Below are positions 3,515 through 18,702 of a stretch of DNA of 64,000 bases, one piece after another. A program made the position numbers and the translations under genes. How positions within the stretch are numbered: the stretch's first letter is position 1; each line of letters begins with the position of its first letter. The notes beneath the pieces were generated by a model. The model made no database searches. It was not told the DNA's origin and worked only from the letters and a program-made list of their open reading frames with translations. This DNA is from an uncultured Pseudomonadota bacterium (GTDB lineage Bacteria; Vulcanimicrobiota; Vulcanimicrobiia; Eremiobacterales; Eremiobacteraceae), in the NCBI GenBank assembly GCA_963736005.1, contig CAVTNB010000001.1:256001-320000 (forward strand). The letters are read 5' to 3'.

Positions 3515-5671
3515 TCAGTCTGTAGGGTGAGCTTCGAAAAGTCTTCCGCGAATAACGGTGATGGACATCGGGGAGATCAAAAAGGCTTGCCGATAGCGGA
3601 CATTAACGGTTGTCTCCTTGGGTCCAGTGTTTGGCCACGGGATCTCGGTTGCCGAGTTGCCGCTCCATGCGTACTGGTCGGCGCCGAAAGTGACGACTTG
3701 CGTGGATCCGCTGAATGTTCCAACTTCTGTCTCGCTTGGAAATTCGATGACCACTTGGTGTGACTCGGTATCCTTGTTAACAAGCATGATCGACCATTGG
3801 CCGTCTGGCCTTTTCGCCGCATAAGCGGTGACTGGCGGATTGTCCATATGCGGTGTGATGTTCACCTTGTAGAGTTCATGTTCTAAATCGCCTGGTTCCA
3901 ACCACTGCTGAGCAAGCATTTGGGCTCCGTAGAATTGCGCTGCATTGGCAAGGATCTTGAAATTCTGGTCCACGATGAACATGCCGTAGCCGCCCCATTT
4001 GTTGCACTCGCGACTATGGCCGAGCGGTTCGGCTTCGTATTGATAGTAGTTAATGCCCGAGACACCATACGAGAGGGCCGTGCCAATCCAGTCGGCCATC
4101 CACAAAGCGCCTGAGATTTGCTTTGGCACCGGGCCACCGTTATTTGCAAAGTTTGACTCAGTAATATACATGGGGACACTCGGCGGCAAGCCGTCGTTGT
4201 GCCAAGCATCAATGACTTGACGCACGAGCGATGGTTCGCGCAGCAGATCCATACGCAACGTTACGCCCTGATCGCACCCGCGAAACGGGTAGTGCTCGAA
4301 TGACATGAACGCGAGGTCGTGCATTCGTCCGTGCAATCGTAGATAGTTGAGGAAGCGCCGAAACCATGAGTCATCGCCTTGCGCGTCGCTCCAAACTTTG
4401 ATGTCGGAGTTCACGCCTTGAAAGACTGGCCCCCCGAGTTTGGCTGATGGATCGACGGCGTGAATGGCTTTTGCAAACTGAACGTAGAGCGCAGCGTAAT
4501 CCTCGGGCATCGCGTACTGACCATCCACCTCCTCACCCATCTCGATGTGGTCGAGCGGATACCCCCTGGCTTTGAGATAGCGAATTTCAGCGACTGCGTT
4601 CTCAGGCGTGCTATAGAGCATTGGGATTGGGTACATCATCGGTAGGCCGCGCGTGATAGCATTGCGGGAAACAATGTCAAGGCCCGGCTGATCCTGCCCC
4701 GTGCGGATTTGATCCGCCGCCGTATGCCAAGGATCGATCGACGACACAAAAATGACGGTCTGGTGATGCTTGCACTCACGCTCGCTCTCGGGGTTGCCGC
4801 CACAGATCGAATGCACGAGGATGTCATGCAAGACCCCGTGGGCATCGAGCTGTCCAAGATAGATTTCTTGGATGGCGTAGCCTACGCAGTTGCGCCGGTC
4901 TTGCGCGCCATGCGTGTCGCAGGTATTCGACGAGCTGGTCATCCAGATCCGAAGGAACCGAACTAAGATTGGCGATGGCGCAAGCCTCAGCTGGGCAATG
5001 CCGCCTCGTCCCTGAACGACCGTTCCACCCGGAAAGTCGTGCCAGGTTCCGCTGCCTTGGTCCAAAATCGCGTCGCCACCCGTCCAAAATTGAACCTTGT
5101 ATTGCGTGGCATACGGATCGACCCACTCGATGCGAATGGCGTCTATCGGTTTTGGATGAATCAAGTCGATCACTGCCCACTGTGGGTGCTGATCGTCAGG
5201 TTCGCCCGTGTAAGGGTGAGTGAGATAGGGATCGCTCTTCCAATAGGTGTTTGGATCTCCGTCATCGATGCGCGAATAATTGTTGTCGTCCCCTTGATCT
5301 TCGGTTGAGCCGCGATGTGGTAGCATGTAGCCGAAAGAGTCGACGATCTCCGGGCTCTTCGGGGACACGCTGCTCACCCAGTAACCTTGCTTGTGGGCCG
5401 GATCGGAAAACTGTCCGACCGGGTTCCAATGCCAATCTTGGATGGAGAGTTCGGTATACAACCGGTAGCTCACAACACCTAAACCGGCGCCCAGCATCAG
5501 GTTGGTCCGCGGCTTCGAATACAAAAATGGGACCTTGCCTGCGTCGTCGGAATCGATGCCGACGCCAACCGCATGCAACGGTCTTATGGTGTTGACGACG
5601 TGGTTTGTGTCCACGCTTATCGTGATGATCGCGCTTGCGGCTACTGTCGCAGCAAGAACAAGAAAATTCAT
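3515..5671 (-). CDS. Secreted glycoside hydrolase (clan GH-A-like TIM barrel) with an inserted discoidin/F5-8 type C (CBM32-like) domain
   Basis: Signal peptide. Discoidin motifs (DDGDPNTYWKS, QWAVIDL, VRFLRIWM). Acid/base-like IEMGEEVDG, LGGP, SFEHYP, nucleophile-like YITES. Confidence 0.7.
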   Translation of the reverse strand: MNFLVLAATVAASAIITISVDTNHVVNTIRPLHAVGVGIDSDDAGKVPFLYSKPRTNLMLGAGLGVVSYRLYTELSIQDWHWNPVGQFSDPAHKQGYWVSSVSPKSPEIVDSFGYMLPHRGSTEDQGDDNNYSRIDDGDPNTYWKSDPYLTHPYTGEPDDQHPQWAVIDLIHPKPIDAIRIEWVDPYATQYKVQFWTGGDAILDQGSGTWHDFPGGTVVQGRGGIAQLRLAPSPILVRFLRIWMTSSSNTCDTHGAQDRRNCVGYAIQEIYLGQLDAHGVLHDILVHSICGGNPESERECKHHQTVIFVSSIDPWHTAADQIRTGQDQPGLDIVSRNAITRGLPMMYPIPMLYSTPENAVAEIRYLKARGYPLDHIEMGEEVDGQYAMPEDYAALYVQFAKAIHAVDPSAKLGGPVFQGVNSDIKVWSDAQGDDSWFRRFLNYLRLHGRMHDLAFMSFEHYPFRGCDQGVTLRMDLLREPSLVRQVIDAWHNDGLPPSVPMYITESNFANNGGPVPKQISGALWMADWIGTALSYGVSGINYYQYEAEPLGHSRECNKWGGYGMFIVDQNFKILANAAQFYGAQMLAQQWLEPGDLEHELYKVNITPHMDNPPVTAYAAKRPDGQWSIMLVNKDTESHQVVIEFPSETEVGTFSGSTQVVTFGADQYAWSGNSATEIPWPNTGPKETTVNVRYRQAFLISPMSITVIRGRLFEAHPTD

Positions 5672-5687
5672 ATCGCATCCCCGACGG

Positions 5688-7967
5688 CTAGCCGCACGAT
5701 CTCAAATCTCCAGGGATTCGACCACGAAGCACGGTGAGAGATTGTGCAGGAAGTGTAAAGAGGGTCTCAGAGTTTGGTGCTTGCCACCTGACAAGGCACG
5801 GCCGGAAAGTGGGTGCAGTGATCGTTGCTGACATCGGTCCCTCATCTGGAGCCGGAACAGAGCGTGATCCGCGCGAGCGCCACACGTATTGTCTAGATCC
5901 AAACGTTACTTGGATCACGTCGTTGACGAACGTTTCTGATCCAGGCTGCTGGGGCGAAACAAATCGAAGGTCAACAGTGTGCGCCTGCACATCCTTATTG
6001 ATGAGCAAGACGGACCACTCGTCCCAATTAGACTCCGCGCGCTTTGCGGCGTAGGCGGTCACGAGAGCATAACCGCCGCGTTGAATATTTGTTGTCGTTG
6101 AATAGAGCGTGAAGGTTGCCCTTGACGGTGCAAGCCACTTCTCAGCGAGCATCTGGGCTGCGAAAAATTGAGCGCCGAGCGCGCGGATATGCGCGTGGCC
6201 GTCAGCCACAAACATAGTGAGGTTTCCCCAATCACTTGGACAATCCGCGTTTTGGGTAAGCGGCACCGGTTCGTACTGATAGTAAACCGCTCCGCTAACG
6301 CCATTTGCGAGAGCGCTCGCCATGTAGTCGGCTTGCCAGAGCGCTCCCTCGATCTGCATGGGCACTTGGGTGAAATTGACCGCCGAGAAGTTCGCCTCGC
6401 TGATGTATATTGGCACGTTCGTCGGCAACCCGTCGGAGCGCCACTGGTTCACGATGCCCTTCATGATCGAGGGTTCCTGAAGAAGATCTTGCTGCAACAC
6501 TGCTCCCCGATCGCAGCCACCGAACGGGTAATGTTCGAACGACATGAACGCGAGCTGCTGCATCTGGCCGTGCGAGCGCAGGTAGTTCAAGAAGCGGTTG
6601 AGCCACGAGATGTTGCCCTGCGCGTCTGACCAGGTCTGCAATTCAGAGTTGACGCCCGAAAAAACAGGACCGCCCAGCTTCAGCGCTGGATAAATTGCAT
6701 GAATCGCCTTCGCCCACTGCACGTAGAGGGCGGCATAGTCTTCCGGTTGCGTGTACTGTCCGTCGGGCTCCTCGCCGAGCTCGATGAACGCTACCGGATA
6801 ATCGCGCGCCTTGAGATAACGGATTTCATTGACCGCATTCTGAGGCGTGCTATAGAGCATAGGGACTGGATACATCGCGCCGATTTCTCGCGTGAGTCCG
6901 CTGCGGGCGATCAGATCGAGCCCCGGTTGCTCCTGATTCTTCACGCGATTTGCGCTTGTGTGCCAAGGGTCAACCGATGAAACGTACGTTGCGGTTTGGC
7001 GCCAACCGCAGGCATACTTTTGGGGATTCGCGCCGCCGCACGGTGCATGGTGAACGTAGTCGCTAAAGCGGCCCGTTCTGGTTACGTTTCCTATGAAGAT
7101 CTCGTTCATGGCGTAGCCGACGCAGTTACGGCCATCAGAGCTACCGTGTGAGTCGCACGTGTTCGAGGAACCGGTCATTAGCACTCGTACGAAACGTGCG
7201 GGAATGGGCACCTTGCCGAATTGCGACAAAGCTGTTCCACCACGCCCGTTTGCGACCAGACCGGAAGGGAAGGTCTGCCAGTCGCCTACGCCGGGATTGT
7301 TGATGGCATCATCGCCTGTCCAGTATTCGATCCGATAGTTAGTAGCGTACGGATTGCTCCAATCGATTCGGACCGCATTGACTGGGCGCGGTTGCCCTAA
7401 ATCGACCACAACCCACTGGGGATGTTGGCCATCCGGATCGCCGGTAAATCGCCGAGTGAGGTATGGATCGCTTTTCCAGTACGTCTTTGGGTTGCCATCG
7501 TCAAGACGCGAGTAGTCTTCGTTGTTACCCTGATCGGTTGTAAAACCTCGGTGGGGCAGCCGATAGCCAAAAGAGTCGCTGATCAGAGCGTTTGAGATGT
7601 GGTCGCCTGAAACCCAATAGCCCTGCGTACCCTCACTGAAGGTGCCTGCGGGATTCCAGTGCCAATCTTGGACAGAAAGCTCTGTGAAGAGCCTGTAGCT
7701 CAGCCAACCAAGTCCGGCCGCCAACATCTGCCTGACGTTACGCTTTGAGTAAAGAGACGGAATGCTGCCAGCCGGCTCTTTGTCAACTGTCGAACCGAGC
7801 GCGACCAGCGGACGAATAACTTGAATCGGCCGCGTGCGATCGATTTGGACCAACTCAGCCGTCGCCGAGGGAGCGGGCGTTGGTGTGGGCGTTTCTGCGG
7901 CGCGCGTGGCCGCGGGAGCCAGGCTCACAACCAAAGAAAATACGAGCGCCAACAGCAGCGAGCGCAT
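5688..7967 (-). CDS. Secreted glycoside hydrolase with discoidin domain; paralog of 3515-5671
   Basis: Shares long identical blocks with the neighbour (SYRLxTELSxQDWHWNP, TYWKSDPYLT, MLYSTP, PEDYAALYVQ, AFMSFEHYPF). Signal peptide from ATG 7967. Confidence 0.7.
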   Translation of the reverse strand: MRSLLLALVFSLVVSLAPAATRAAETPTPTPAPSATAELVQIDRTRPIQVIRPLVALGSTVDKEPAGSIPSLYSKRNVRQMLAAGLGWLSYRLFTELSVQDWHWNPAGTFSEGTQGYWVSGDHISNALISDSFGYRLPHRGFTTDQGNNEDYSRLDDGNPKTYWKSDPYLTRRFTGDPDGQHPQWVVVDLGQPRPVNAVRIDWSNPYATNYRIEYWTGDDAINNPGVGDWQTFPSGLVANGRGGTALSQFGKVPIPARFVRVLMTGSSNTCDSHGSSDGRNCVGYAMNEIFIGNVTRTGRFSDYVHHAPCGGANPQKYACGWRQTATYVSSVDPWHTSANRVKNQEQPGLDLIARSGLTREIGAMYPVPMLYSTPQNAVNEIRYLKARDYPVAFIELGEEPDGQYTQPEDYAALYVQWAKAIHAIYPALKLGGPVFSGVNSELQTWSDAQGNISWLNRFLNYLRSHGQMQQLAFMSFEHYPFGGCDRGAVLQQDLLQEPSIMKGIVNQWRSDGLPTNVPIYISEANFSAVNFTQVPMQIEGALWQADYMASALANGVSGAVYYQYEPVPLTQNADCPSDWGNLTMFVADGHAHIRALGAQFFAAQMLAEKWLAPSRATFTLYSTTTNIQRGGYALVTAYAAKRAESNWDEWSVLLINKDVQAHTVDLRFVSPQQPGSETFVNDVIQVTFGSRQYVWRSRGSRSVPAPDEGPMSATITAPTFRPCLVRWQAPNSETLFTLPAQSLTVLRGRIPGDLRSCG

Positions 7968-8251
7968 GTGCCGGCACATTCATGGCGAAACGCCAACACC
8001 CTTCGCCTCCTTTACAGCAACCCGTTGCGCTTGACGTCGCCCGGCCAGCGGGGATAGGGGGGTAAACGAGCAAGAACTTGGAGCCCTATAGGCGAACGAA
8101 CGTCAGTCGCGCTCGTCTCTCGCGTGCGCGCCTAGGGTTGTCGCACTCCGGGTCGAAGCCAATATTCAGGCGACATTTACCGACTGGTTGGCTTTTCAAG
8201 GGTGGGTAATGATTCGCAATGAGTTTGCAATGAAACGCGTGGAATGAAGTC

Positions 8252-8813: not shown

Positions 8814-9294
8814 TAGTCATTGGCCCCCGGTCTTCCGTGGCGAAGACACCGTCTAAAAGAGCGGCATCGCCGGGACACGTTGGCCTTGGGTGGCAAGTCT
8901 CAGCGAATGGCCACTTGCCAAAGGAGCCACCATCCGATGATCAGGGCGGAGAGCATTTCAACCGAGAATGCGTAGGGTCGCCTCGGCGCGCCTTGGCAAA
9001 CGGTCGCAACGAGGGCATACGTGTCACAGTCAGCGCAGTTTGGAAACACAAGCATAGGTCTGGCGCTCCGTCTTTAAGAGTAAGAGAAACCCAGCTTAGG
9101 TTTGTTTCCCTGTTCCCGGCCTCGAGAAACCTAACCGAAATTCTTGAGACTTTCGGACTAGCCGTCCTCAAGGTGTCACTGCGGGAGCCCGCCGCACCAG
9201 CCGCAAACTTAAGAACTCAATCGCTCGAAAGGCCGAGCGAGGAAGCGCGATGAGGCGTTCGTTTTCCTAAAGTGATTGCCAGCAGGAGTACTTC

Positions 9295-9396
9295 ATGTAC
9301 AGCACACCGAGAATCATCGCTTCGCTCGATGCCACAGTCATATTGTCAGAGGCCCTGGGTGGGTGCGCGAGTCAGTGCCCGCCTCCTTTCGCCTAG
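9295..9396 (+). CDS. Putative RiPP-like precursor peptide 1, MYSTPRIIASLDATVILSEALGGCASQCPPPFA (33 aa; not in the ORF track)
   Basis: AGGAG RBS just upstream of the ATG, terminator downstream, 13/22 leader identity to the peptide at 11433. Confidence 0.8.
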   Translation: MYSTPRIIASLDATVILSEALGGCASQCPPPFA

Positions 9397-9421
9397 AGCC
9401 AAGGGATCAGTAGCAATCGAC

Positions 9422-9471
9422 GCAAGAAGGGGAGCGAAGTCGCTAAGACAGGATTCCCCTTCTTGTTTTTT
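9422..9471 (+). terminator. Intrinsic terminator between peptide 1 and the convergent DUF6065-like gene
   Basis: GCAAGAAGGGGA / TCCCCTTCTTGT stem followed by a T-tract. Confidence 0.7.
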
Positions 9472-9479
9472 AGGCGCGC

Positions 9480-10238
9480 TTACTCAGAAAAGCGTTTTAG
9501 GTTCAGTTTTTGGCGGTGGTGAAGTGCTTTGGTGCCGTCCGGGCTCGTGCCGAGCATATAGTGTTTCTGCCAAGTTGCGGGCTGCTGACCCTGATCCTTG
9601 GGGTGCACGGGCTTCATGAACTCAGCTCGACTCGTGCGCCAGGCGAAATAGGACTCTTTCAACCTTGAATTCTTCTCGAGGGACTCGAGTCGCGGTTCAA
9701 ACCGTTCGATATCCGCCAATCTTGTTGGCACAAGCATGGCAATCGGCTCATCGATCTCAAAACGAACTTTGTGCTTCGGCCTCGTGATCTGCCAGTTCAT
9801 CGTAAAAGGGGCCACAGACCAAGACGTTTCAACAATCCCTTCGAGCGGCACGATGCCATCTTTTGGCAGATTCGCCGGACCCCGCACCATCAAGTCGAAG
9901 GCTTGTGAAGTTCTAAAGAGATAGGGCAAGCTGAACGTGAGGATACCATACCCAAAATGACTCGAAGCCCAGGTGGGACCTGTGCCGCGAAGATATCGAA
10001 TCCGCAATGACGCTTGATCGCGGCCACCCTTCCATTCCGCTTCAAACGCGCGGTTGTTCAAGATGAACCAGCCAGCTTGATTTGCGATCAAGAGCGGCAA
10101 GCAGCGGTTAGCAAAACGCCCCGGCAATGATTCGATCCATCCGCGCATTCGCGGGGCAGGCTCGATTTTGAGGTCATCGTCACTCTTGCGGTAGGCGATG
10201 AGCTCGTGCTCATCACGTTTGTCTTCGCGAGTGTCCAT
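9480..10238 (-). CDS. DUF6065-like protein
   Basis: Motifs PAPxxRxW, RCLPLxxANxxGW, SHFGYGILTF, GPANLPKDGIxPLEGIVET, FTMNW and WQKHY, as I recall them for this family. Confidence 0.75.
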   Translation of the reverse strand: MDTREDKRDEHELIAYRKSDDDLKIEPAPRMRGWIESLPGRFANRCLPLLIANQAGWFILNNRAFEAEWKGGRDQASLRIRYLRGTGPTWASSHFGYGILTFSLPYLFRTSQAFDLMVRGPANLPKDGIVPLEGIVETSWSVAPFTMNWQITRPKHKVRFEIDEPIAMLVPTRLADIERFEPRLESLEKNSRLKESYFAWRTSRAEFMKPVHPKDQGQQPATWQKHYMLGTSPDGTKALHHRQKLNLKRFSE

Positions 10239-10277
10239 CTTCAGTGTAACAGGTGCTGCCTCGCCTTTTGTGGACCC

Positions 10278-10418
10278 TTACGTGCAGGCGGGGTGTCCGC
10301 ACTCGCATTTATGCTGTTGCTGGTGCTCCGTGTGTTTGGCGCAATGTCCACTGCAGAACCGGCCAGATGTCGCCATGCACTTACAGTGCTCGTGTTCGCA
10401 TTTTTTTGGCTCGGCCAT
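10278..10418 (-). CDS. Metallothionein-like Cys/His-rich peptide, MAEPKKCEHEHCKCMATSGRFCSGHCAKHTEHQQQHKCECGHPACT (46 aa; not in the ORF track)
   Basis: AAGGGAG RBS. 8 Cys and 7 His in the pattern CxHxxCxC-FCSxxC-CxCGHxxC, resembling bacterial BmtA/SmtA metallothioneins. Confidence 0.85.
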   Translation of the reverse strand: MAEPKKCEHEHCKCMATSGRFCSGHCAKHTEHQQQHKCECGHPACT

Positions 10419-10589
10419 TGAATTAATCTCCCTTGCAAGACGCCTGGGTGCAGGAAAAGGCTCAGCTATCGTTTGTTCCTTGGATTAGCTGGCCACCTGC
10501 TCGACGAGAGAAAACGCTGTCGATACGAGCGCTAGCGACCCACGAGACGGCGTTTTCCGCTAAGCGGTCCTAGAATTGAGCATTCCGAA

Positions 10590-11336
10590 GTGATGCGCGC
10601 TCTTACACACGAAGAAGATCAGGTGATCGACCAAGACCTTTTCGAGGGGACTCGCGAGGAGCTGGCGACACGGCGTTATGCCGTTCTCCGTCCCGACGTC
10701 ATCATTTCAGCCATCGACCGCCTCAAGCTGCGTGCCGCCGTCTTTCAAGACGCGCGCCTCGAAGTAGACCAGCCGGACATGCATCCCAATCGGAGTCGCG
10801 CCGATGCCGTGCTGAGGTTTGCGTGGAGAGGAAGCGACGTTGAGCTCACCCTTGGTCCGAACCCGTCCACTGCGCCGGAAACTCGTCAGGTTGTACGGTA
10901 CACGGCGAATCACAAAGGCGATCGGGAATACCTAAGGCTAAGGGCGCTCGACATTCCCGAATTGAGAAAGCTCCTTGTTGGCCTCCTCAATCTCATTCCG
11001 CGGGAGTCGCGACGGGAAAGGGGATTACTGGGCGTGCATGCCTTGCGGACGTTCGGAGACGTTGTTTTCGTTCGACATCGCGACGGGAGTGTTGACGCTC
11101 CGGTTGATTGGGTCGCATCCTATGTAGCGTCAAAGAGCGGGGACGGTGCAGAGACGCAGTTGACGTTAGATCAGGATGGCAAACTGCTTATTGCTAAGGC
11201 TGTTCTTGCCCAAGGCCAGCTGGCTGTGCATCATGACGCCACATTCTTTCATTACGTCACGCCTCTCGTAAGCGGAAGCCCTGACGGCAAGCAGCGTGAC
11301 GCTGTGGTCATTACTATTAGACCAGACTTCGAGTGA
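10590..11336 (+). CDS. 2OG-Fe(II) dioxygenase family protein (BsmA/2OG-Fe_Oxy_2-like)
   Basis: HRDG (HxD) motif, distal FHYVTP His, C-terminal RDAVVIT with the expected 2OG-binding Arg. Confidence 0.7.
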   Translation: MMRALTHEEDQVIDQDLFEGTREELATRRYAVLRPDVIISAIDRLKLRAAVFQDARLEVDQPDMHPNRSRADAVLRFAWRGSDVELTLGPNPSTAPETRQVVRYTANHKGDREYLRLRALDIPELRKLLVGLLNLIPRESRRERGLLGVHALRTFGDVVFVRHRDGSVDAPVDWVASYVASKSGDGAETQLTLDQDGKLLIAKAVLAQGQLAVHHDATFFHYVTPLVSGSPDGKQRDAVVITIRPDFE

Positions 11337-11388
11337 GCGCAGAGGACGCTTTAGTGCTTTTGGACTAAGGCAGGCAAGGGCGGTGGCA

Positions 11389-11397
11389 TGTTACAAT
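11389..11397 (+). promoter_or_regulatory. Extended -10 promoter candidate for peptide 2
   Basis: TG-T-TACAAT about 35 nt upstream of the ATG. Confidence 0.45.
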
Positions 11398-11432
11398 GGT
11401 CAGAGTCGCCCCTCATAAGGAGAACCATCCTC

Positions 11433-11528
11433 ATGTACACGGCCCCAAAAATTCTCGCATCTCTCGATGTCACGGCTGTCATGTCTGAAACTCTCGGCGA
11501 TTGCCACTCAAGCGCAGGAACTTTATAG
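11433..11528 (+). CDS. Putative RiPP-like precursor peptide 2, MYTAPKILASLDVTAVMSETLGDCHSSAGTL (31 aa; not in the ORF track)
   Basis: TAAGGAG RBS, candidate promoter and terminator; paralog of 9295-9396. Confidence 0.8.
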   Translation: MYTAPKILASLDVTAVMSETLGDCHSSAGTL

Positions 11529-11562: not shown

Positions 11563-11593
11563 GGAGCCGGCGATACGTCGGCTCCTTCATTTT
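11563..11593 (+). terminator. Intrinsic terminator after peptide 2
   Basis: GGAGCCGGCG-ATA-CGTCGGCTCC 10-bp stem followed by TTCATTTT. Confidence 0.65.
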
Positions 11594-11793
11594 AGATATG
11601 GAACTTTAAATCCCAGTTTGCGATCGAGATGTTGTTGTAACCCCAGTTGGCAGAAGCACAGAAAGTGCGACCCGACGATAAGAGACTGTCCCCTCTCCGT
11701 CAAAGTACTGCAACAACGCAACACTTTCAAGCCGTGGCGCTCTTGCGTTTTCTGAAAGCTTGCGACTGGGGATCTGGTCCCAGGAGGGAGGCT

Positions 11794-13464
11794 ATGTCTT
11801 CACCCTCATCTCACCGAGCGACGGCGCGCGTAACGGTTGTCACCGCTTTGGCGGCCGCCGCAATGGCGACCGTGTTGTCCGGCTCAGCCTGCACGAAGGT
11901 CTCGACCGGAGGGCCGTTATCTAGCCGGGCGGTGCCGGGTGTCGTGCGCATCGTCGGCATCGGCTCGATGGACAATATGGTGCCGGAGCTCTCCGCCACG
12001 ATTGCCGCGGTCGACGTGGGGATGTTCTGGGCCGGCTGGTTCTTCATCGTCAACGACAAAGGTCAACTCGAGCCGGATTTAGCTACAGAGGTGCCGACGC
12101 CCTCAAACGGTGGCATCAGCAAGGACGGACTTACCATCCGCTATCATTTGCGTCGTGGTGTTACGTGGCATGACGGCGTTGCGTTCACGGCACGCGACGC
12201 GATCTTTACGTGGCGGCTTATCATGAACCCCAACAACAACGTGCTGAGCCGCACAGGATACGATCAAGTTGCATCTATGGACGCGCCGGACCCCTATACG
12301 CTCGTGGTGCATCTCAAAAGACCTTACAGTCCGGTTATCGCTGCATTGTTCAGCATGAGCGGAACGCCAATGTGCGTGTTACCGGAACACCTGCTGCGAG
12401 GCTTACCAGATATCAATCATGCCGCATTCAATAACAAGCCTGTCGGCACAGGTCCCTTCATGGTCGCACATTACGATCCGCAATCGGGGGTTGACCTCAT
12501 CGCAAATCCACACTATTGGCGAGGGCCTCCGAAACTCCATGACATTCACATCATCTTCGCGCAAGATGACAGCACGCGCATCGTGATGATGAGGACCGGC
12601 GAGGCTGACCTCTTCTACGATCCAGCAAATCGTGTGGTGCCGGAACTTGCAGGCATACCCGACACTCGAGCACTGCATACGCCATTCGAGGAGTTTTGGT
12701 ATCTCGATTTCAACCTAAAGCGTCCGCCCCTTGACGATCTCCGCTTGCGCCGAGCCATCGTGATGGCGGTCGATAGGCAGTCGATCATTCGCGACCTCTT
12801 GCACGGTTACGCGACGATAGCCAACGGCGATCAGCCCCCGTTCTCGTGGGCCCACGATCCATCCACGGAAGCTCCGTCGTACGATCCCGTGGGTGCAGCG
12901 CGCCTGCTTGATCAGGCGGGATGGGAGCTTGGCGCAGATGGGGTGCGACGCCGCAATGGGAGACCGCTCACGCTTGTGTACGCCTACAGCGTAAATTCCG
13001 GTGATGGCGTACGGTATGGCCCGATTTTCCAAAATGTTATGCGTCAGCTAGGTATTGTCGTCAGTGTGAAGGGTTACCCGGACAGCCTCTTCTACGCCGC
13101 GAAGCAATCCGGAGGGATCCTGCAAAACGGTAAGTTCGATGTTTCCTATCAAGGCTGGATCGGTGGCATCGATCCCGATGACCGGACTTTGTGGGCGTGC
13201 GATCAACAGCCCCCAAGCGGATACAACACGTCATTCCTTTGTGATCGGCGCGTCGACGAACAAGAGCGCATCGCAATGACATCGTACGACCTCAAGACGC
13301 GTAAGGCGGCATACGCTCGCATTCAAGAATTGCTCAACGCGGATCTTCCGGTCGATTTTCTGTATTGGTCGATGCGCAACGACAGCGTGCGCAGCGAACT
13401 CCGCAACTACCAGCCCGCTCCGGTGGTGACTGAATTTTGGAATAGCTGGAAGTGGTCCATCTGA
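11794..13464 (+). CDS. Peptide ABC transporter substrate-binding protein (family 5, OppA/AppA-like), likely lipoprotein
   Basis: PDLATEVP, SKDGLTIRYHLRRGVTWHDG, PVGTGPF, RLRRAI and ARLLDQAGW motifs. RBS AGGAGGGAGG before ATG 11794. No permease or ATPase adjacent. Confidence 0.9.
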   Translation: MSSPSSHRATARVTVVTALAAAAMATVLSGSACTKVSTGGPLSSRAVPGVVRIVGIGSMDNMVPELSATIAAVDVGMFWAGWFFIVNDKGQLEPDLATEVPTPSNGGISKDGLTIRYHLRRGVTWHDGVAFTARDAIFTWRLIMNPNNNVLSRTGYDQVASMDAPDPYTLVVHLKRPYSPVIAALFSMSGTPMCVLPEHLLRGLPDINHAAFNNKPVGTGPFMVAHYDPQSGVDLIANPHYWRGPPKLHDIHIIFAQDDSTRIVMMRTGEADLFYDPANRVVPELAGIPDTRALHTPFEEFWYLDFNLKRPPLDDLRLRRAIVMAVDRQSIIRDLLHGYATIANGDQPPFSWAHDPSTEAPSYDPVGAARLLDQAGWELGADGVRRRNGRPLTLVYAYSVNSGDGVRYGPIFQNVMRQLGIVVSVKGYPDSLFYAAKQSGGILQNGKFDVSYQGWIGGIDPDDRTLWACDQQPPSGYNTSFLCDRRVDEQERIAMTSYDLKTRKAAYARIQELLNADLPVDFLYWSMRNDSVRSELRNYQPAPVVTEFWNSWKWSI

Positions 13465-18102: not shown

Positions 18103-18702
18103 ATGTCGCTTGAATTAGCGAACACCCTTGGAACCTTGATCACCGTAGCCATAGTCGCTGCAACTGCAATCGCCGCCATGGTACAGCTGCGACACCTGCG
18201 GGCTGGTAATCAGATCAACGCCATGCTGAGCATCGGCGAAGAGCTTAGCTCTCAACCGTTACGCGATGCCGAATACTTAATTCGTCACAAGCTTGACGCC
18301 GCGATGCGTGATCCACAATATCGAGATTATGAAATCGCATACTTGCGCAACCAAGGTCCATTAAAGGCCAACCCCGATTTCTTGGAACTGCATCGAGCGC
18401 GGAGACTGTTCGGGAATGCCTGGGAAGAACTCGGGATCCTTGTCAAGTGTGGCATCGTGGACAAGGCAATCTTTCTCGACCGTTATTCGTGGGTGATACT
18501 CAGGGCCTGGAAGCAAATGGAGAACGTGACGGCACTGGTGCGAGACGCCTCCGGCGACAATTCGCTTTGGGAGAACTTCGAGTATTTGGCCGTGCTTTCG
18601 GAGGACTGGCAGAAGGAAAATCCCAGCTCGTATCCATCTGGCGTCCGACGGATGCAACTCACGAACCCGTGGCCCGTGCCGCTGATGCCAGCAAGAGCGT
18701 AG
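18103..18702 (+). CDS. DUF4760-like membrane-anchored protein
   Basis: N-terminal TM helix, then QLRHLR, NxWEELGILVKxG, WENFEYLA; GGAGG RBS. Confidence 0.65.
   Translation: MSLELANTLGTLITVAIVAATAIAAMVQLRHLRAGNQINAMLSIGEELSSQPLRDAEYLIRHKLDAAMRDPQYRDYEIAYLRNQGPLKANPDFLELHRARRLFGNAWEELGILVKCGIVDKAIFLDRYSWVILRAWKQMENVTALVRDASGDNSLWENFEYLAVLSEDWQKENPSSYPSGVRRMQLTNPWPVPLMPARA

Follow-up and report, generated by a model that had tools for sequence, protein, structure and literature searches.

Two small genes of an Eremiobacterota/Vulcanimicrobiota genome, probable orphan precursors of a divergent pathway resembling that of linear polyphosphorylated peptides

Introduction

Linear polyphosphorylated peptides (LPP), specified by lppA-K-B-S-D-N in Paenibacillus alginolyticus and other Bacillota, were described in May 2026 (Popov et al., Nat Commun 2026, PMC13381572). 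Here we analyse two small genes, pA and pB, found in a 64-kb stretch of DNA – the window, to which sequence numbering refers – from the genome of an uncultured bacterium of the phylum Eremiobacterota/Vulcanimicrobiota (G000 in what follows). They are probably orphan precursors of an LPP-like pathway whose enzymes are encoded far away. In the parts of the LPP paper on which we draw, precursors are 35-200 amino acids (aa) long, their leader follows the consensus YxxPxVLxHQxIxFETxxS, and the core of LppA has 45 aa. The kinase LppK adds up to four phosphates to core Ser3. Cutting of the leader by the SipW-like peptidase LppS (S29/H68/D93) requires LppB, a recognition element (RRE) of peptides made by the ribosome and modified after translation (RiPPs). 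A nucleoside triphosphate (NTP) transferase, LppN, and an MsbA-like protein, LppD, complete the set. The same parts of the paper report the role of LppN, the final product and its biology as unknown, and state that LPP are restricted to Bacillota. A word search of its six supplementary files found neither 'Eremiobacter' nor 'Vulcanimicrobi'.

Other described systems share some of these parts. In the portions of the literature used here, the tailoring set of the paeninodin-type phosphorylated lasso peptides comprises an HPr-kinase homolog, a nucleotidyltransferase (NTase) and a B1 RRE (PMC13381572, PMC8498205, PMC9266682), while phospeptin is a phosphorylated linear RiPP of the marine 'Ca. Eudoremicrobiaceae' (Paoli et al., Nature 2022, PMC9259500). 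Literature searches combining HPr kinase, PqqD, nucleotidyltransferase and RiPP returned lasso peptides only; 'HprK-related kinase' returned nothing, and among the works listed on Eremiobacterota RiPPs none dealt with the present system by its title or abstract.

Two small genes and their family

A preliminary description of the window, made from its letters, had pointed to two small open reading frames (ORFs), our pA and pB (Table 1). Both translations were reproduced exactly from the DNA, and so was their likeness: aligned without a gap, they share 13 of 22 leader residues, plus C24 and S26. Every pair of differing codons listed there for conserved residues is found in the DNA. The AGGAG ribosome-binding site ascribed to each was located, as AGGAG for pA and AAGGAG for pB, and the terminators said to be their own correspond to a hairpin followed by a U-run 3' of both genes. 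When folded, the pA stem has 13 bp (9422-9466) and leads into GUUUUUU; that of pB has 10 bp, 8 of them GC (11563-11585), and ranks first in the terminator scan. The exact sequence of pA is present in public gene calls, nameless, and that of pB has no match among them. Compared with NCBIfam the two peptides matched 0 families, and pA had no usable match in the protein atlas.

The genome G000 (2.84 Mb in 6 contigs, GC 0.587, completeness 84%) proved to hold 8 paralogs, recovered by tblastn and a six-frame motif scan: two in the window, five elsewhere on the same contig, C1, and one on C3. All begin M-Y-x-x-P-[KR]-I-[ILV]-A-S-[LV]-D, have Gly22 and end in 9-13 unrelated residues. When 1.84 billion representative proteins were searched with a hidden Markov model (HMM) of the eight, 57 clusters matched at E ≤ 1e-3. 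With few exceptions they have a length of 29-45 aa, and the motif lies at their N-terminus or close to it; the family is nameless in public gene calls, one inspected member being a 'hypothetical protein'. The search for leader homologs that the preliminary description had proposed thus yields both paralogs and homologs in other genomes. The family is present in 11 of 41 relatives, often as tandem arrays of 2-3 copies, and in a sample of 401 genomes from the whole phylum its profile matches 40. G000 aside, the positives belong to two taxonomic families of one class (11/29 and 28/297 genomes); the other 19 families of the phylum gave 0 of 75. Tallies of the peptide family and of the kinases below include the unpublished genomes G008, G013, G254, G333 and G334, and the alignments behind the 401-genome profile search and the complex prediction contain rows from G008 and G013.

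Selection can be read from the codons. Among the leaders of the eight paralogs, the proportion of synonymous differences (pS) is 0.76, that is, saturated, and that of nonsynonymous differences (pN) 0.26; the pair pA and pB gives 0.79, again saturated, and 0.21. Between G000 and its congener G002, four ortholog pairs give a pN of 0.011 and a pS of 0.207 in the leader, and three pairs of equal length give 0.168 and 0.280 in the core. The pB ortholog of G002 retains 22 of 22 leader residues, where the only nucleotide change is synonymous, and differs at 3 of 9 core residues. Both pA and pB are genuine genes subject to selection. Their similarity far exceeds chance, since eight ORFs have the leader in common, the HMM gathers 57 clusters and synonymous sites are saturated. 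The comparison of leader and core, also suggested beforehand, shows a leader under strong purifying selection, far more constrained than a core that is hypervariable and evolves fast. A constrained leader joined to a fast core is the pattern of RiPP precursors, as the preliminary description had surmised.

Leader and core

Statistics on cores come from 83 parsed family members, which yield 81 distinct cores; lasso and CS motifs were counted on 84 cores. The leader consensus is M-Y-x-x-P-x-I-[ILV]-A-S-L-D…A-x-G, with Y2, P5 and I/V7 invariant or nearly so, and the core that follows has 5-19 aa. Of the 83 leaders, 81 have Gly22; at position 20 there are 70 with Ala, 7 with Val and 3 with Thr. 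Signal peptidases prefer small residues at -3 and -1, a rule that Ala20 and Gly22 fit.

What the cores retain is a Ser, present in 80 of the 81. The first one always falls at core position 1-8 (80/80), most often at 4 (29 cores), and in 63 of 80 no later than position 5; in both pA and pB it is S26. Two Cys, mostly spaced by 3-6 residues, occur in 53 of the 81 cores, one in 15 and none in 12. Cys directly precedes the first Ser in 22 of them, and the motifs CS and CxS are found in 28 and 19 of 84. More distant genomes of the same class have the operon described below together with divergent precursors, which keep MYxxPxxI…AxG and have Cys-free cores rich in Ser, Gly and His.

A family of signal peptides had been offered as the alternative to RiPP precursors. 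A Sec signal peptide has a positively charged n-region, then an unbroken hydrophobic h-region of ~7-15 residues. The leader alignment, inspected by eye, has a near-invariant Asp12, frequent Lys/Asn14 and Glu/Asp19, and hydrophobic runs of at most 5 residues. Asp12 and the acidic residue at ~19 would interrupt any h-region, and the leader does not fit a Sec-type signal peptide.

A remote operon with a set of enzymes like that of LPP

Candidate machinery lies beside another paralog of G000, pE, at ~995.5-1002.3 kb of C1. It includes a PqqD-type RRE, two HprK-like kinases, a fusion of a signal-peptidase-like domain with a PF14907 domain, and an ATP-binding cassette (ABC) exporter. The same gene set forms an operon in the related genome G003: three precursors are followed by HprK-like proteins of 296 and 316 aa and by an S26-like+PF14907 protein of 530 aa. 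The PqqD gene (89 aa) comes further downstream, past an opposite-strand gene and an ABC2 permease gene, and an ABC_tran ATPase and PF16962 permease pair is encoded divergently. Exporters adjacent to the loci are either of this kind or have ABC-2 type permeases. In G008 only, one of the unpublished genomes, a stand-alone 175-aa peptidase ORF is followed directly by PqqD. A '132-aa protein' 3' of PqqD was discarded as an antisense artefact of a plus-strand ORF. The earlier statement that no cyclase or peptidase is present is correct for the window, but not for the genome as far as the peptidase is concerned, a putative leader-peptidase domain being encoded beside pE.

An HprK-like match (E ≤ 1e-8) was obtained in 65 of the 401 genomes, namely in 37 of the 40 with the peptide and 28 of the 361 without it. 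In 29 of the 40 a precursor lies at most 1.5 kb from a kinase gene. Taken place by place, 46 of 95 precursors are within that distance and 49 are farther away, which makes dispersed copies the rule. Because related genomes are not independent, these figures are counts, not statistics.

The RRE matches PF05402 above cut-off (E 1.2e-11). Its nearest solved structure in a sequence search of the PDB is the lasso RRE TbiB1 (E 1.4e-5), with no LppB chain among the matches. The preliminary description had linked YxxPx(I/L) to RRE binding, and the PqqD-type protein agrees with this. A predicted complex of PqqD with pA scores 0.48, the best of 3 controls 0.17, with at least 98% of contacts agreeing between runs and a partner pLDDT (predicted local distance difference test) of at least 58. 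This lends weak support to binding: among 157 solved complexes, 116 attain the mark, against 2 among 215 mismatched pairs, yet scores of 0.60 or less account for 18 of those 157 and for both mismatched pairs that pass. As lasso RRE-leader complexes have already been solved, the pass may also reflect likeness to them.

The kinases match TIGR04352 at E 2e-13, 6e-13 and 3e-9, with an invariant P-loop GK[TS], and an AlphaFold2 (AF2) model (pLDDT 89.3) retrieves PEPCK and HprK/P with Foldseek at E 1e-7. In the fusion protein, the peptidase part resembles TIGR02228, the archaeal-type signal peptidase I (E 8e-8 in G000, 2e-4 in G003, both lower than the cut-off of 51.85 bits). Across 46 homologs its triad is conserved as S37 (SMxP, at least 90%), H74 (AHR) and D89 (GD), and the NTase motif K265-G266…D284-x-D286 is invariant. 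PF14907 is matched above cut-off (E 2.6e-22) and found in 89 of 90 homolog clusters of ~480-570 aa; where these bear a name it is 'nucleotidyltransferase family protein', except for one 'signal peptidase I'. In an AF2 model of the fusion (pLDDT 92.6), Foldseek likens the N-terminal domain to LexA/UmuD and human signal peptidase SEC11 chains and the C-terminal domain to NTase-fold proteins; a sequence search of the PDB with the 530-aa fusion gave nothing relevant. The N-terminal helix of the model is short and amphipathic, hence not a membrane anchor, so that the peptidase is probably cytoplasmic, like the NTase fused to it. When loci were searched with a 9-row alignment, 20 were found, 18 of them at E 2e-39 or better; about 11 are labelled Vulcanimicrobiota/Eremiobacter, several carry other or generic labels, and two are weak NTase-only outliers.

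Comparison with described systems

The preliminary description recognised no class for these peptides. Their presumed enzyme set is that of LPP, a likeness drawn from gene content, motifs and the published LPP description. As far as the parts of PMC13381572 used here allow comparison, both systems have a short precursor whose conserved leader carries YxxPx(V/I) at the N-terminus and whose C-terminal part varies; a discrete PqqD-type RRE, an HprK-like kinase, a PF14907 NTP transferase and ABC export; an archaeal or SipW-type Ser-His-Asp signal peptidase as presumed leader peptidase; no macrolactam cyclase; and a Ser few residues into the core. There are also differences. The host phylum is not Bacillota, there are two kinases instead of one, and peptidase and NTase mostly form a single protein of ~530 aa. 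Cores have 5-19 aa, mostly with a Cys pair, against precursors of 35-200 aa in LPP, orphan copies are many and dispersed in each genome, and the operon lies outside any capsule locus. By this comparison, we see the novelty as that of a divergent LPP variant in a new phylum, not of a new class; before May 2026 the system would have counted as one.

Two further systems come near, again within the parts of the literature drawn on. Like the tailoring set of phosphorylated lasso peptides, the present operon has an HprK-like kinase presumed to act on a leader-bearing precursor, PF14907 and a B1-type RRE of the kind that binds YxxP/WxxP; unlike that set, it has neither cyclase nor B2 protease, and its cores would be unable to form a lasso ring. 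Phospeptin is, as proposed here, a phosphorylated linear RiPP of the same phylum, but it involves a LanM-type dehydratase-like enzyme, Thr targets and another precursor family, and is described with no RRE, S26 peptidase or NTase, all three of which are present here.

A proposed pathway and what weighs against it

We consider it probable, though well short of certain, that pA and pB are orphan precursors of a divergent LPP-like pathway. Gene content, co-occurrence, adjacency, the pattern of selection, conserved catalytic motifs and predicted folds all point that way; each chemical step, the site of cleavage and the processing in trans of the remote pA and pB are modelled on LppA/K/B/S/D/N. The small PqqD-type RRE would bind the 22-residue leader through its YxxPxI motif. 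One or both HprK-like P-loop kinases would then phosphorylate the early core Ser (S26 in pA and pB), possibly repeatedly. Given the RRE-leader complex, the signal-peptidase-like Ser/His/Asp domain would cut after A-x-G, and the PF14907 nucleotidyltransferase fused to it may further decorate the phosphate. The divergently encoded ABC exporter would secrete a product of 5-19 aa, whose usual Cys pair probably forms a disulfide outside the cell.

Several observations weigh against this proposal. To begin with, pA and pB are ~730 kb from the enzymes. HprK-like genes exist in the 28 peptide-negative genomes, and three peptide-positive ones, G154, G293 and G334, have no kinase match; these have weak peptide matches or are 75-93% complete. 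According to the portions of the LPP paper drawn on, the exporters differ (ABC_tran + PF16962 or ABC-2 instead of an MsbA-like pump), the LPP leader consensus is matched no further than YxxPx(I/V) (…ASLD…AxG here, …HQxIxFET there), and Tyr stands 16 residues before the cut in LPP, 21 before the proposed one. One core has no Ser. The cores without Cys count here too, and they imply that the system can do without a Cys pair.

The assignment of the enzymes also has its soft spots. Scores against HPr_kinase_C, TIGR04352 and TIGR04353 are below curated cut-offs (36.5-50.1 bits for TIGR04352, cut-off 200; 30.5 for TIGR04353, cut-off 35). The last two are the kinase A and the PqqD chaperone of the NCBIfam HPr-rel-A system, which supplies the best NCBIfam matches of the kinases and, jointly with TIGR03859 PQQ_PqqD at E 5.5e-7 each, of the RRE. 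With scores that far below for the kinases, and below as well for the RRE, the operon proteins are not members of the HPr-rel-A equivalogs. Every Foldseek E-value for the fusion model is weak, 7e-3 or larger. Finally, the peptidase-NTase gene of G000 has one extra nucleotide in its linker when compared with the intact 518-aa gene of G002, so that it is split, broken or mis-assembled; translation of the NTase part could resume at an internal Met.

Alternative readings

The alternative that survives best keeps the precursors and the enzymes and changes the chemistry. Phospho-Ser might be turned into dehydroalanine and joined to Cys in a lanthionine-type thioether, through HprK-like kinases instead of Lan enzymes, or the NTase might make a nucleotide- or sugar-phosphate-linked product. 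We find this unlikely, even if the cores lend themselves to a thioether, with their two Cys in 53 of 81, the 22 where Cys comes just before the first Ser, and the frequent CS (28/84) and CxS (19/84). More generally, an operon with two kinase paralogs, where LPP have one, and with an NTase that is part of one protein with the peptidase and whose catalytic motif is retained, leaves room for other products, all the more because no role for LppN was found in LPP, in the parts of PMC13381572 used here. Against a thioether stand the absence of any lyase or cyclase homolog seen in the operon and the 12 of 81 cores that are Cys-free. Furthermore, the LPP product observed in those same parts is a phosphorylated linear peptide.

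It is quite improbable that the peptides are simply freed of their leader, exported and left otherwise unmodified as disulfide peptides, similar to signals or bacteriocins, with the kinases and the NTase acting elsewhere. An exporter and a signal-peptidase-like cutter are indeed adjacent, the cores are hypervariable as in bacteriocins, and HprK-like/PqqD/NTase cassettes occur without the family in 28 of 361 genomes as well as in polysaccharide-type loci of G000. The kinases lie however between precursor and peptidase, in a tightly packed operon, across genera, and Ser is retained in 80 of 81 cores that are otherwise unrelated.

Alternatively, pA and pB may be decaying duplicates, no longer made or processed, with only pE, on the operon side, still functional. 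This is very unlikely. In its favour, both genes are far from the enzymes, pA with the neighbouring DUF6065 gene constitutes a 1-kb indel missing in G002, the pB core lacks a second Cys that its G002 ortholog retains, and the exact pB sequence is not among public gene calls. Decay, by contrast, is hard to reconcile with start codons, Shine-Dalgarno sequences and terminators that are intact in both, with leader positions of the family that are all retained, with a pB leader identical to that of its ortholog (22/22, one synonymous and no nonsynonymous change), and with the 49 of 95 members across genomes that likewise are not beside a kinase.

A lasso core starts with G/A/S/C, has D/E at positions 7-9 and is long enough to thread, and its leader has Thr at -2; kinases of phosphorylated lasso systems have been named PadeK and ThcoK. 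Lasso precursors matured by a remote cyclase and a B2 protease, to which the YxxPxI motif, the lasso-like RRE and two PF13471 (B2-like) matches plus Asn-synthase homologs in G000 might lead, are scarcely credible, as the preliminary description already maintained for ordinary lasso peptides: D/E is at positions 7-9 in 9 of 84 cores, 3 also have the required start and thus fit the ring rule, 7 reach 15 aa or more, leader position -2 is mostly Leu and never a conserved Thr, the PF13471 genes, found on C2 and C3, are surrounded by glycosyltransferases in separate cassettes, the Asn-synthase match of C4 belongs to a polysaccharide locus and comes with a complete GATase domain, no Asn-synthase match, whether on C4, C2 or C1, lies close to the pE operon or to any member of the family, PF00733 is absent from the operon neighbourhoods scanned, and no cyclase or B2 protease was seen in any precursor neighbourhood examined.

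Significance

Returning to the LPP-like pathway, its presence in Eremiobacterota/Vulcanimicrobiota would make the toolkit of kinase, RRE and signal peptidase older or more mobile than assumed. The fusion of peptidase and NTase argues that the NTase works on the same peptide. The family would also provide dozens of natural short substrates, with cores of 5-19 aa and one conserved Ser; being so short, they would make the chemistry easier to follow by mass spectrometry than the 45-aa core of LppA. Lastly, unannotated small ORFs remote from biosynthetic genes become assignable to a pathway through leader homology.

A bolder proposal, which we judge doubtful, is that of a distinct class of very short secreted peptides, where two kinases and a peptidase-fused NTase would build a product other than plain polyphosphate and where one enzyme set would service a genome-wide, fast-evolving library of orphan precursors. 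Candidate products would then be a Ser-derived thioether to Cys, or a nucleotide- or sugar-phosphate cap. Such a system, in an uncultured soil phylum, would recall the combinatorial strategy of the prochlorosins; G000 has eight precursors in 2.8 Mb, and half of all copies across genomes lie off-operon.

Neighbouring genes and other loci

Table 1. Features of pA, pB and their surroundings (window numbering), and elements elsewhere in G000 (contig numbering). MFE, minimum free energy; z, its z-score.
Feature	Position	Strand	Remarks
pA Shine-Dalgarno AGGAG	9284..9288	+	ATG 6 nt downstream; read from DNA
pA, 33-aa precursor MYSTPRIIASLDATVILSEALGGCASQCPPPFA	9295-9396	+	translation; family HMM E 3.4e-18
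pA leader, 22 aa MYSTPRIIASLDATVILSEALG	9295-9360	+	
pA core GCASQCPPPFA	9361-9393	+	stop 9394-9396
pA hairpin + U-run, intrinsic-terminator-like	9422..9473	+	MFE -26.3 kcal/mol, z -2.44
DUF6065 gene	9480-10238	-	Pfam
46-aa Cys/His-rich ORF MAEPKKCEHEHCKC…	10278-10418	-	9 Cys, 7 His
2-oxoglutarate (2OG)-Fe oxygenase, PF10014	10590-11336		
pB Shine-Dalgarno AAGGAG	11417..11422	+	ATG 10 nt downstream; read from DNA
pB, 31-aa precursor MYTAPKILASLDVTAVMSETLGDCHSSAGTL	11433-11528	+	translation; family HMM E 8.7e-17
pB leader MYTAPKILASLDVTAVMSETLG	11433-11498	+	
pB core DCHSSAGTL	11499-11525	+	stop 11526-11528
pB hairpin + UUCAUUUU, intrinsic-terminator-like	11563..11593	+	MFE -21.8 kcal/mol, z -3.19
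Family-5 solute-binding protein	11647-13464		
PF05402 in G000	C1:995560-995757		
Extra base in peptidase-NTase linker	C1 ~996,99x (L003 ~5230-5300)		frame change vs G002
PF00733 matches in G000	C4; C2 ~180.5 kb; C1 1088 kb		C4 and C2 full-length; C1 weak, partial

The genes around pA and pB – a dioxygenase, a DUF6065 protein and a solute-binding protein – turn out to be unlinked to the family; dioxygenases and solute-binding proteins were among the neighbours that the preliminary description had listed for tabulation. The 2OG-Fe oxygenase is found in 2 of 25 related genomes, G000 and G002 only, and DUF6065 in 1 of 25, G000 itself, with none in the 24 relatives searched. A block of ~1 kb (9254-10277), made up of pA with its terminator and of the DUF6065 gene convergent to it, is missing in G002 between syntenic genes, where only 24 nt separate the flanking ORF from the Cys/His-rich ORF. 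DUF6065 and the 2OG oxygenase were therefore rejected as tailoring enzymes, being rare in relatives and, for DUF6065 along with pA, absent from G002. Nor did all-vs-all BLAST and Pfam scans reveal a common enzyme among the flanking ORFs of the eight G000 loci.

The Cys/His-rich ORF has a metallothionein-like composition and is 98% identical at the syntenic place of G002; it has no Pfam or NCBIfam match. Upstream in the window, two tandem paralogs on the minus strand (3515-5671 and 5688-7979; 718 and 763 aa, 52% identity) each have an F5/8 type C (discoidin) domain and otherwise no recognised domain. DUF4760, of which the window has one copy (18103-18702, plus strand), is present 18 times in G000 and 0 times in 14 control genomes. 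Five copies lie at most 8 kb from precursor paralogs (pB, pC twice, pD and pF), when ~1 would be expected by chance, the loci being non-independent, and one copy directly adjoins the precursor array of the genome G017.

G000 has other cassettes of the general HPr-rel-A kind, on C2 and C3 in polysaccharide-type loci. The second one is located at 36-44 kb of C2 (L032 8786-16726), in a glycosyltransferase-rich locus, and encodes a paralog (546 aa) of the peptidase-NTase fusion that has Ala/Leu at the catalytic Ser/His positions. It further comprises an ORF of 131 aa that is PqqD-like and has a tail at its C-terminus, one of 321 aa with a P-loop, genes for a sulfotransferase and a phosphoesterase, and a PF13471 match. 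At 20-24 kb of C3 (L033 5945-9991), a weak PqqD-like protein of 170 aa accompanies a 334-aa ORF, a GT2, a PF13471 transglutaminase-like protein of 165 aa and a PF14907 protein of 376 aa, with no cyclase. Finally, at 1,901-1,903 kb of C1 (L035 6166-7599), a PqqD protein of 123 aa adjoins a radical S-adenosylmethionine (SAM)/SPASM protein of 310 aa, and this pair may be another RiPP locus.

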